A stretch of DNA of 64,000 bases, taken from contig JBEKWR010000009.1 in the NCBI GenBank assembly GCA_049512935.1, positions 28,036 through 92,035 of the forward strand, given 5' to 3'. This DNA is from Candidatus Bathyarchaeia archaeon. GTDB taxonomy: Archaea > Thermoproteota > Bathyarchaeia > Bathyarchaeales > Bathycorpusculaceae. The notes under the pieces were generated by a model. It was not told the DNA's origin, ran no database searches, and worked only from the letters and a program-made list of their open reading frames with translations. Both the position numbers and the translations under genes were made by a program. This document shows positions 53,167 through 53,837 of this stretch, piece by piece; position 1 is the first letter of the stretch; each line of letters starts with the position of its first letter.

Positions 53167-53310
53167 AATAGTTAGCTCCGCTCCTTCAGCTCCCTGAAGA
53201 GTTTCAGGTGAACTCAGCTAATTAGATAGAAAAGAAGGCTTTTACCCACCTAAAGAGGGAGTTTATTGCCTTAAGACTGTTTAAAACATGATTTATAGAA
53301 CGTAGCCCTA

Positions 53311-53558
53311 TTAGAGATGGCAGGTCGGGGAGCACGCTTTAAACGCAAACCGCATTGAAGCAAGGAGCAAGCCAACCAAAACAGCGGAAAGTTGGTGAGC
53401 GACAAAGACTTTGCAGCAATGGGCTGGACGGAGCTATGTTACAGTGAGGCCGTGAGCGACGTGGTCAAAACGGTGAAAGACCATGAAACGACAAAGACAG
53501 GGCTTCAGTGGGCCGCGGAACATCTTTAAGGCTTAGACCCGACCTGCTTATCTTTTAA
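53311..53558 (+). ncRNA. Candidate BHB-processed ncRNA (predicted excised/circular 201-nt RNA, 53336-53536)
   Basis: TTTATA box at 53292; outer stem GGCAGGTCGGG/CCCGACCTGCT; BHB GAGC-ACG / GCTT-AGA; T-rich tail. Confidence 0.65.
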
Positions 53559-53627
53559 TTAAGTAACAAGTTTTGAAGAGCCCGTGTAAGGCAGGATAGT
53601 TAGTTACTCGCCCTTTTTTGGTAGCAG

Positions 53628-53837
53628 TCATATTCTATTGAAGTATTCTAGAGGCGCATACCAGAAAACCATGATTGATTTTCTACATTCAGGGTTTTTG
53701 CATTTAACCCTTCTTTTGAAAACTTCCCCGTGGTAACTGTTCCTTATCGGTTTTTCTGATGAGAACGCCGTGTGAAGTCTGTCAGGCGGTTCAACTTTAA
53801 AGGGTCTGTAACAGAATGGGCATTCGAGAACGGCCAT
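53628..53837 (-). CDS. Small zinc-finger protein
   Basis: CPFC ... CKNPEC; GAGG upstream of the ATG. Confidence 0.75.
   Translation of the reverse strand: MAVLECPFCYRPFKVEPPDRLHTAFSSEKPIRNSYHGEVFKRRVKCKNPECRKSIMVFWYAPLEYFNRI

Follow-up and report, generated by a model that had tools for sequence, protein, structure and literature searches.

Circular RNAs generated by cutting at the motif called bulge-helix-bulge (BHB) and subsequent ligation were previously known from tRNA introns, pre-rRNAs and one permuted signal recognition particle (SRP) RNA. Circular pre-rRNA intermediates that are later re-linearised belong to the textbook model, as set out in PMC12918454, and the SRP RNA of Thermoproteus is circularised and permuted, according to PMC4731332; in the circular C/D box small RNAs (sRNAs) of hyperthermophilic archaea, according to PMC9014305, circularisation is performed by the ATP-dependent Rnl ligase and proceeds without a BHB. 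Here we describe a locus in a 64,000-nucleotide (nt) stretch of a Candidatus Bathyarchaeia archaeon genome (GCA_049512935.1, contig JBEKWR010000009.1, positions 28,036 to 92,035; the whole stretch is called the window, and positions are those of the window), in which the BHB machinery is used by a gene that appears to exist solely for producing a conserved circular RNA. We consider it highly likely that bases 53292-53560 form a gene with its own transcription, for which a circular non-coding RNA is the single evident product. The account begins with this gene, the conservation of its structure and the RNA joint, and then turns to its relatives and to a nuclease-like protein, here called protein X, that recurrently neighbours such genes.

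The locus had been singled out in an earlier note made from the letters of the window, and the motif that it described was recovered element by element (Table 1). The TTTATA box is present where it had been placed, and the outer stem of ten pairs is formed by GCAGGTCGGG, which is the exact reverse complement of CCCGACCTGC; as had been supposed, the stem is extendable, by one further G.U pair. The 4-bp helix GAGC/GCTT consists of the pairs G.U, A-U, G-C and C-G, and the two bulges ACG and AGA each lie 3′ of their own central-helix strand, which makes the motif a canonical BHB. Likewise, the inner helix CTT(T)AAA/TTTAAG with a single bulged T and the T-rich tail (CTTATCTTTTAATT) were found as claimed. 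In the usual notation, the flanking helix h is the outer stem, of 10-11 bp and covarying, and h′ is the inner helix, of 3 + 3 bp, in which a single U is bulged; by eye, certain single-module relatives have an h′ of 1 bp only, followed by an internal loop, i.e. a relaxed form. The middle base of the 5′ bulge is variable among homologues. By a strict regular expression, a TATA match was identified at −40 to −18 in 24 of 44 homologous loci, clustering at −29 to −32, and most of the remaining loci carry A/T-rich hexamers at the promoter position by eye, so the strict expression understates the promoters; 27 of the 44 show a T-run pattern no more than 30 nt downstream. The folding energy of a 251-nt stretch was determined to be −86.7 kcal/mol versus −66.8 ± 4.3 kcal/mol for shuffled sequences (z = −4.67; 0/200 shuffles as good).

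Table 1. Positions in the window of the elements of the circular RNA gene and of its joined product.
Feature	Position	Strand	Remarks
TATA-like promoter box	53292..53297	+	~23-28 nt upstream of the outer stem
Outer processing stem, 5′ strand (5′ exon)	53320..53329	+	pairs with 53538-53547, ten Watson-Crick pairs
BHB central 4-bp helix, 5′ strand GAGC	53330..53333	+	pairs with 53531-53534
5′ bulge ACG	53334..53336	+	predicted cut between 53335 and 53336; RNA joint starts at 53336
Excised 201-nt RNA, ends joined (circle)	53336..53536	+	joint in runs X1 and X2; junction word absent from own assembly
Closing helix, 5′ strand	53336..53344	+	after joining pairs with 53524-53532; UUAG tetraloop cap holds the junction
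Module 1	53353..53426	+	P1 53353-62/53412-21; P2 53367-76/53391-400; apical loop 53377-90
Module 1 hinge and pseudoknot	hinge 53401-11; pseudoknot 53382-85/53423-26	+	A-rich hinge GACAAAGACTT; CAGC pairs with GCTG
Module 2	53442..53515	+	P1 53442-49/53503-10; P2 53456-66/53479-89; apical loop AAAACGGTGAAA 53467-78
Module 2 hinge and pseudoknot	hinge 53490-502; pseudoknot 53471-74/53512-15	+	hinge GACAAAGACAGGG; CGGT pairs with GCCG
BHB central helix, 3′ strand GCTT	53531..53534	+	
3′ bulge AGA	53535..53537	+	predicted cut between 53536 and 53537; RNA joint departs from 53536
Outer processing stem, 3′ strand (3′ exon)	53538..53547	+	
T-rich tail, probable terminator	53548..53560	+	from sequence

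Evidence that the locus is expressed and processed came from metatranscriptomes. Nine runs from eight studies were found to contain part of the window, four of which (X1-X4) were examined, and the RNA evidence consists of assembled Logan contigs matched at 90% likeness. The 201-nt product that had been predicted was borne out: a joint that leaves 53536 and re-enters at 53336, and so goes back 201 positions, was identified in runs X1 and X2, which belong to two studies. In X1 one contig of depth 600 passes through the joint with 147 and 18 letters on its two sides, and in X2 one contig of 166 nt does so with 84 and 82 letters, having 0 and 1 differences, respectively. Further loose ends behind 53536 continue into the relatives' version of 53336 onward, in 1 contig of X1, 2 of X3 and 16 of X4. 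The joint falls on the canonical BHB cut positions, after the second nucleotide of both bulges, and the junction words (20-30 nt) occur 0 times in the assembly of the organism itself, in which two 20-nt genomic control words occur once each. Across runs X1-X4 no contig covers 53250-53333 or 53544-53650, and these uncovered flanks carry no evidential weight. Separately, the module-2 hairpin (53446-53501; 53460-53487) reached a summed contig word depth of ~1.2-1.4 million in runs X3 and X4; the RNA family may be very abundant judging from this pooled depth, which combines many relatives and cannot be normalised, so that no claim on expression level is made.

Conservation of the structure was determined on two alignments, A1 with 17 two-module homologues and A3 with 20 single-module sequences. 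The model tested on A1 comprised the BHB, two P1/P2 hairpins and two pseudoknots (64 pairs), for which 95.6% of the cells are paired and 27 of the 64 pairs change on both sides, versus 14.4 ± 2.4 in shuffled alignments (0/500 reach 27) and at most 8 when the model was slid; RNAalifold on the same alignment predicted 61 pairs, 26 of them with compensatory changes. In A3, 92.4% of the cells are paired and 36 of 49 pairs change on both sides, versus 24.1 shuffled (0/500) and at most 18 slid. The earlier note had named covariation within the BHB of homologues as a check on its reading, and the motif is retained together with its covariation: the central helix is paired in 68/68 cells of A1 and 80/80 of A3, and its first pair is G-C in 9, G.U in 6 and A-U in 2 of the A1 sequences. 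Both-side changes were also found in the outer stem, at 4 of 10 pairs in A1 and 8 of 10 in A3, and in module 1 of A1, at 8 of 10 pairs of P2 and 3 of 10 of P1. The module 1 pseudoknot is invariant in the two-module set and covaries in the single-module set, where it is 96.3% paired with one pair G-C in 16 and A-U in 4, and the module 2 pseudoknot is paired in 68/68 cells of A1, with 2 of its 4 pairs changing on both sides. By regular expression the BHB motif is retained in 43 of 44 loci, and by eye in L032 as well.

From these data a route of biogenesis may be proposed. Transcription would start at about the foot of the 10-11-bp stem, which would display the canonical BHB motif; a tRNA-splicing endonuclease would cleave both 3-nt bulges behind their second nucleotide, and the internal piece would be closed by an RtcB-type ligase into the 201-nt circle (53336-53536), with the flanks giving a short hairpin only. 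This last expectation of the earlier note held, in that the flanks would ligate to a 10-bp hairpin with a 7-nt loop that matches no tRNA or rRNA model. The own genome encodes two EndA-family proteins (PF01974 matches) and one RtcB (PF01139 match), which are the presumed enzymes. The circle would be rod-shaped, with the junction placed in the UUAG loop of a helix that closes one end, and would hold two tandem modules of ~85 nt, in each of which the P1-P2 hairpin would bend at a 1 × 8-nt A-rich loop and the apical loop would form a 4-bp pseudoknot with the tail following P1.

Several observations weigh against this account. Contigs cannot reveal the ends or the strand of an RNA, its circular-to-linear ratio or its RNase R resistance, so the dependence on EndA and the circle as the mature form stay at the level of likely conclusions; the contig of run X1 reaches just 18 letters past the joint, and the runs were matched at 90% likeness only. 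For the precursor, RNAalifold prefers thermodynamically a competing 7-bp helix (columns 17-23/223-229) over the BHB form. The geometry of the motif is, moreover, common by chance: a scan of the whole 2.3-Mb assembly for a Watson-Crick outer stem of at least 8 bp, a 4-bp helix, two 3-nt bulges and an inner helix of at least 3 bp, 50-460 nt apart, yielded 55 proper hits versus 47 mirror-image controls. BHB geometry alone is therefore not beyond chance, and the case is carried by conservation, covariation and the RNA joint.

Because contigs are blind to RNA ends, the circle could also be a processing intermediate only, comparable to archaeal pre-16S rRNA, with a linear and possibly permuted mature RNA that is opened elsewhere, and circular pre-rRNAs that are re-linearised offer a precedent (PMC12918454). 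We regard this as unlikely, as the junction sits within a conserved helix-tetraloop predicted by the circular fold, no conserved second processing motif was seen, and contigs of two runs cross the junction; the circle rather than a re-opened linear form is thus taken as the probable mature species. It is very unlikely, in turn, that the junction is an artefact or is encoded in DNA, through template switching, repeat assembly or tandem duplication in a strain, and that the locus gives a linear structured sRNA. Logan contigs do collapse repeats, the two modules resemble each other and a relative (G013) has a three-module gene, but that gene duplicates a module and not the BHB ends, and the joint lies exactly at the canonical cut positions of both bulges, recurs in two studies, with the sequences of relatives in two further runs, and yields a junction word that is absent from the own assembly. 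That the locus is instead a small mRNA for a 45-aa open reading frame (ORF) at 53392-53529, or that the circle is translated, can be practically dismissed, for although this ORF exists in the window and the circle length of 201 is divisible by 3, 13 of 16 homologues show internal stops in the corresponding segment and in 14 the length of this segment is indivisible by 3, each of the three circle frames contains 2-4 stops per turn, predicted circle lengths vary (192-205, 106-111 and 289 nt), and substitutions track base pairing.

Known RNAs were then considered as identities of the gene. The earlier note had recognised no RNA family, and this holds: at the gathering score Rfam gave no match at the locus, with one tRNA in the whole window, and at E ≤ 10 the locus gave two far sub-threshold chance rows only. 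An intron-containing or permuted tRNA was rejected, since neither the Rfam tRNA model nor ARAGORN, including its intron option, reported anything at the locus and the joined exons are a plain hairpin. An SRP RNA, permuted forms included, was rejected with no match at E ≤ 10 at the locus and a canonical full-length SRP RNA at G000:C3:55941-56255 (144.5 bits; G000 is the own genome), and an RNase P RNA, again including permuted forms, with no match at the locus and an RNase P RNA at G000:C26:9428-9730 (189.5 bits). A viroid-like or self-replicating RNA was rejected as well, given a chromosomal DNA template with a promoter in 25 of 151 genomes and no match to an Rfam ribozyme family. C/D box RNAs carry conserved C and D boxes at a guide spacing of 12 nt, and H/ACA RNAs carry a pseudouridylation pocket whose lower stem is immediately followed on its 3′ side by an ACA box. 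By eye, neither conserved boxes nor such a pocket were seen, no dedicated search being made, and the sole Rfam row of snoRNA type, with 15.9 bits, is a chance row on the opposite strand. In the full-text literature that was searched, a description of the RNA family was not found. The earlier note had also likened the motif to that of a tRNA-Glu intron in the window; at about 17051-16946 on the minus strand there is a gene resembling tRNA-Glu(CUC), in which ~32 nt are inserted near the D-arm. Neither ARAGORN, with or without its intron option, nor Rfam at the gathering score reported this gene, the tRNA reported in the window being tRNA-Ala only, and its minimum free energy (MFE) fold shows no clean BHB.

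The body of the RNA is built of one to three copies of a module, two in this gene. Each module, of ~85 nt, consists of P1 (10-11 bp), a 1 × 8-nt A-rich asymmetric loop (GNCAAAGA), P2 (10-11 bp) and an apical loop of 12-14 nt, four nucleotides of which pair with the tail just after P1; among members the loop/tail pairs CGGC/GCCG, CAGC/GCUG, CAAC/GUUG and CCCAG/CUGGG were recognised by eye. P1 has the same length as P2, so that the apical loop meets the tail when the module bends sharply at the A-rich loop. Genes with one module measure 133-139 nt, those with two 219-232 nt and the one with three 316 nt, corresponding to predicted circles of mostly 106-111 nt, 192-205 nt and 289 nt, respectively. 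In the joined molecule the closing helix is GCUUUAA/UUAAGGC beneath the UUAG tetraloop with the junction; the circular MFE fold gives it as an 8-bp helix with the UUAG loop, and RNAalifold at columns 17-23/223-229. This junction-bearing helix explains why sequence conservation of the frame exceeds what a BHB requires. A kink-turn (K-turn), the binding site of L7Ae, has a 3-nt bulge and then tandem sheared G.A/A.G pairs, in the register C-stem, loop, GA. It was considered for the A-rich loop and rejected, since covariation pairs the G of NNGA with the C of GAC, which shifts the register by one position from that of a K-turn: in A3, columns 46-90 are G-C in 19 of 20 sequences and the neighbouring pair 45-91 is UA in 9, CG in 5, AU in 3 and UG in 3. 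The G of AAAGAC is not invariant either, being A in several members. The loop would still be compatible with a non-standard kink.

In the own genome, one protein of which groups among Bathyarchaeota proteins in the protein atlas, the RNA gene is single-copy. Of 61 related genomes, a DNA search recovered it in 21, the count within the genus being 16 of 36, with similarity spanning from the foot of the outer stem to just past the stem end. Two covariance models, R1 and R2, agreed on 25 of the 151 genomes sampled from the class as carrying the family, in 13 of 79 genera. In a sample of the phylum the covariance search found it in 7 of 151 genomes, all 7 within the class, and in 0 of 131 genomes of other classes; as filters were strict and genomes were sampled and partly incomplete, this outside-class result reads as "not found" rather than "absent". 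Among individual genomes, G013 (L011) carries the three-module gene, the complete genome G052 carries four genes of the family (L038 and L053-L055), and G025 carries a degenerate copy (L052) without the BHB frame.

A gene of ~210 aa, that of protein X, is located on the opposite strand 22-483 nt upstream of the RNA in 11 of 45 RNA loci, in three families. Protein X matched no Pfam or NCBIfam family, and by sequence nothing in the PDB below E = 0.28. Its structural model (predicted local distance difference test, pLDDT, 89; predicted template modelling score, pTM, 0.86) matches PD-(D/E)xK folds over residues ~47-202, with Z scores of 9.6 for 3dnx, 9.0 for XisH (2okf), 8.7 for AF1548 and 7.2 for NucS, and the residues E54, D81, E94, E96 and K119 are invariant. 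Protein X was identified in 74 of 151 genomes of the class, in 59 of 151 of the phylum sample, and in 23 of the 25 RNA-positive genomes, the two misses being 85% and 68% complete.

When the X loci were searched with the RNA model (filters off) and a motif scan, a BHB-framed RNA gene was found divergently beside protein X in 17 of 31 loci examined. Four X-adjacent framed genes (f1, f10, f14 and f22) keep promoter, stem and frame and have an unrelated body. In all, the divergent pair of protein X and a BHB-framed RNA was encountered across eight families (f1, f10, f11, f14, f22, f23, f25 and f27) and in one genome of another class. The latter, G309 (L128:2288-2393), has a 106-nt BHB-framed gene for a long, nearly perfect hairpin, oriented divergently to X and ~155 nt upstream of it; this was the sole convincing case among 16 out-of-class X loci scanned for BHB frames, the other 15 giving noise. 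In the loci L070-L074, L078-L082 and L085 (f21, f24), protein X stands without a framed RNA, and the gene before it is one for a DUF123 protein (PF01986, E = 4e-28 in L082), which shares its strand in 10 of the 11 loci.

The own genome holds three BHB-framed genes, on contigs C9, C5 and C3. Protein X of this genome (226 aa, PD-(D/E)xK-like; G000:C5:110200-111187, L056:1456-2443) is divergent to the C5 gene, which is 167 nt long, has an unrelated body, matches nothing in Rfam and, in a DNA search, proved conserved in 7 of the 36 members of the genus. The third gene, of 142 nt (G000:C3:149181-149322, L115:501-642), combines a TATA-like box with an 11-bp stem, the central helix GAAC/GTTT and a T-run, and in the closest relative, the genome G035, conservation extends from promoter to stem end. 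The gene frame is probably a reusable cassette. On contig C25 (G000:C25:27787-27948), a 34-bp perfect inverted repeat, 162 nt across, also meets the BHB geometry, on both strands.

What the RNA does was weighed against this neighbourhood. It is plausible, if short of probable, that its function is independent of protein X, the modules acting as ligand-sensing aptamers or as a sponge for another abundant RNA-binding protein (e.g. L7Ae), with the adjacency of X reflecting only a conserved bidirectional-promoter arrangement. In this genus X and the RNA are unlinked, the distribution of X is much wider than that of the RNA, G052, a complete genome, combines four genes for the RNA with a single X, and the compact pseudoknotted fold with its invariant unpaired A's would resemble an aptamer architecture; yet the divergent pair of X and a BHB-framed RNA persists across the eight families and the genome of another class, and a strict K-turn is absent. 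Tentatively, the RNA may instead be a stable protein-binding ribonucleoprotein (RNP) scaffold or regulator, the modules being repeated binding units and protein X the likeliest partner. More doubtful is a wider proposal, according to which the promoter, the 10-bp stem and the GAGCANGC...GGCUUAGA BHB frame form a dedicated circular-RNA cassette with several unrelated bodies, in Bathyarchaeia as well as one or more further lineages of the phylum, whose circular products would serve protein X as RNA partners, be it as guides, regulators or inhibitors, in a new archaeal RNP system.

A tie to protein X is opposed by several findings, and the function proposed is a guess. The fold Z scores are moderately above the aligner background (typical best Z 7-8), and Foldseek gave only weak rows for protein X versus PD-(D/E)xK proteins, with E of 1.5e-3 or weaker. 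Of the 126 class genomes negative for the RNA, 51 contain protein X as well, and other classes have the protein without the RNA; in the own genome it lies on C5, unlinked to the 201-nt RNA on C9, and adjoins a different BHB RNA. The link between protein X and the RNA is therefore offered as a conserved-neighbourhood lead and not as a demonstration.

Directly downstream of the RNA gene, at 53628-53834 on the minus strand of the window, a 68-aa zinc-ribbon-like ORF (CPFC...CKNPEC) was found, which matched no Pfam family. A homologue of it adjoins the RNA in 6 of 19 loci, in two sub-clades and in opposite orientations.

The locus thus represents a dedicated gene for a circular RNA family of an undescribed structural class, and enlarges the non-coding RNA repertoire of a major uncultivated archaeal group by a new family. 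If the splicing endonuclease is indeed the enzyme, it would have dedicated substrates beyond tRNA and rRNA, and the gene frame would provide a compact natural circularisation cassette with interchangeable cargo. In addition, the repeated adjacency gives the uncharacterised, nuclease-like protein X family a testable RNA partner.

Type III toxin-antitoxin RNAs such as ToxI are variable tandem pseudoknotted repeats beside the gene of a nuclease-like protein and are processed by the partner protein. By analogy only, the present family may be likened to such antitoxins in its tandem pseudoknotted repeats, their variable number and the nuclease-like neighbour; it differs in that the genes are divergent rather than co-directional, processing is by the BHB, and protein X looks vertically inherited and single-copy, which is not typical of toxin-antitoxin loci. 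With the circular C/D box sRNAs of hyperthermophilic archaea (PMC9014305), it shares being a small circular archaeal non-coding RNA, a protein partner being a candidate only here, whereas it carries a BHB, has no conserved C/D boxes by eye and no Rfam C/D match, and has an internal loop that is not a standard K-turn. Like the Thermoproteus SRP RNA (PMC4731332), the RNA has a stand-alone non-coding RNA gene whose functional form would arise via BHB processing and circularisation, but it is not an SRP RNA, the canonical one being encoded elsewhere in the genome. The circular pre-16S/23S intermediates and the circular 23S rRNA, as presented in PMC12918454, similarly involve a long stem with a BHB, EndA cutting, RtcB ligation and a circle, the same enzymes being presumed here; in contrast to them, the present RNA is of 201 nt, non-ribosomal and monocistronic, with no sign of re-linearisation. 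In geometry it is identical to the archaeal circular tRNA introns (and comparable to the metazoan tRNA intronic circular RNAs, tricRNAs), which are likewise excised at a BHB by cuts in both 3-nt bulges and circularised; unlike in those, there is no tRNA here, the exons are a 10-bp hairpin, and the "intron" is itself the conserved structured product, made from its own promoter.

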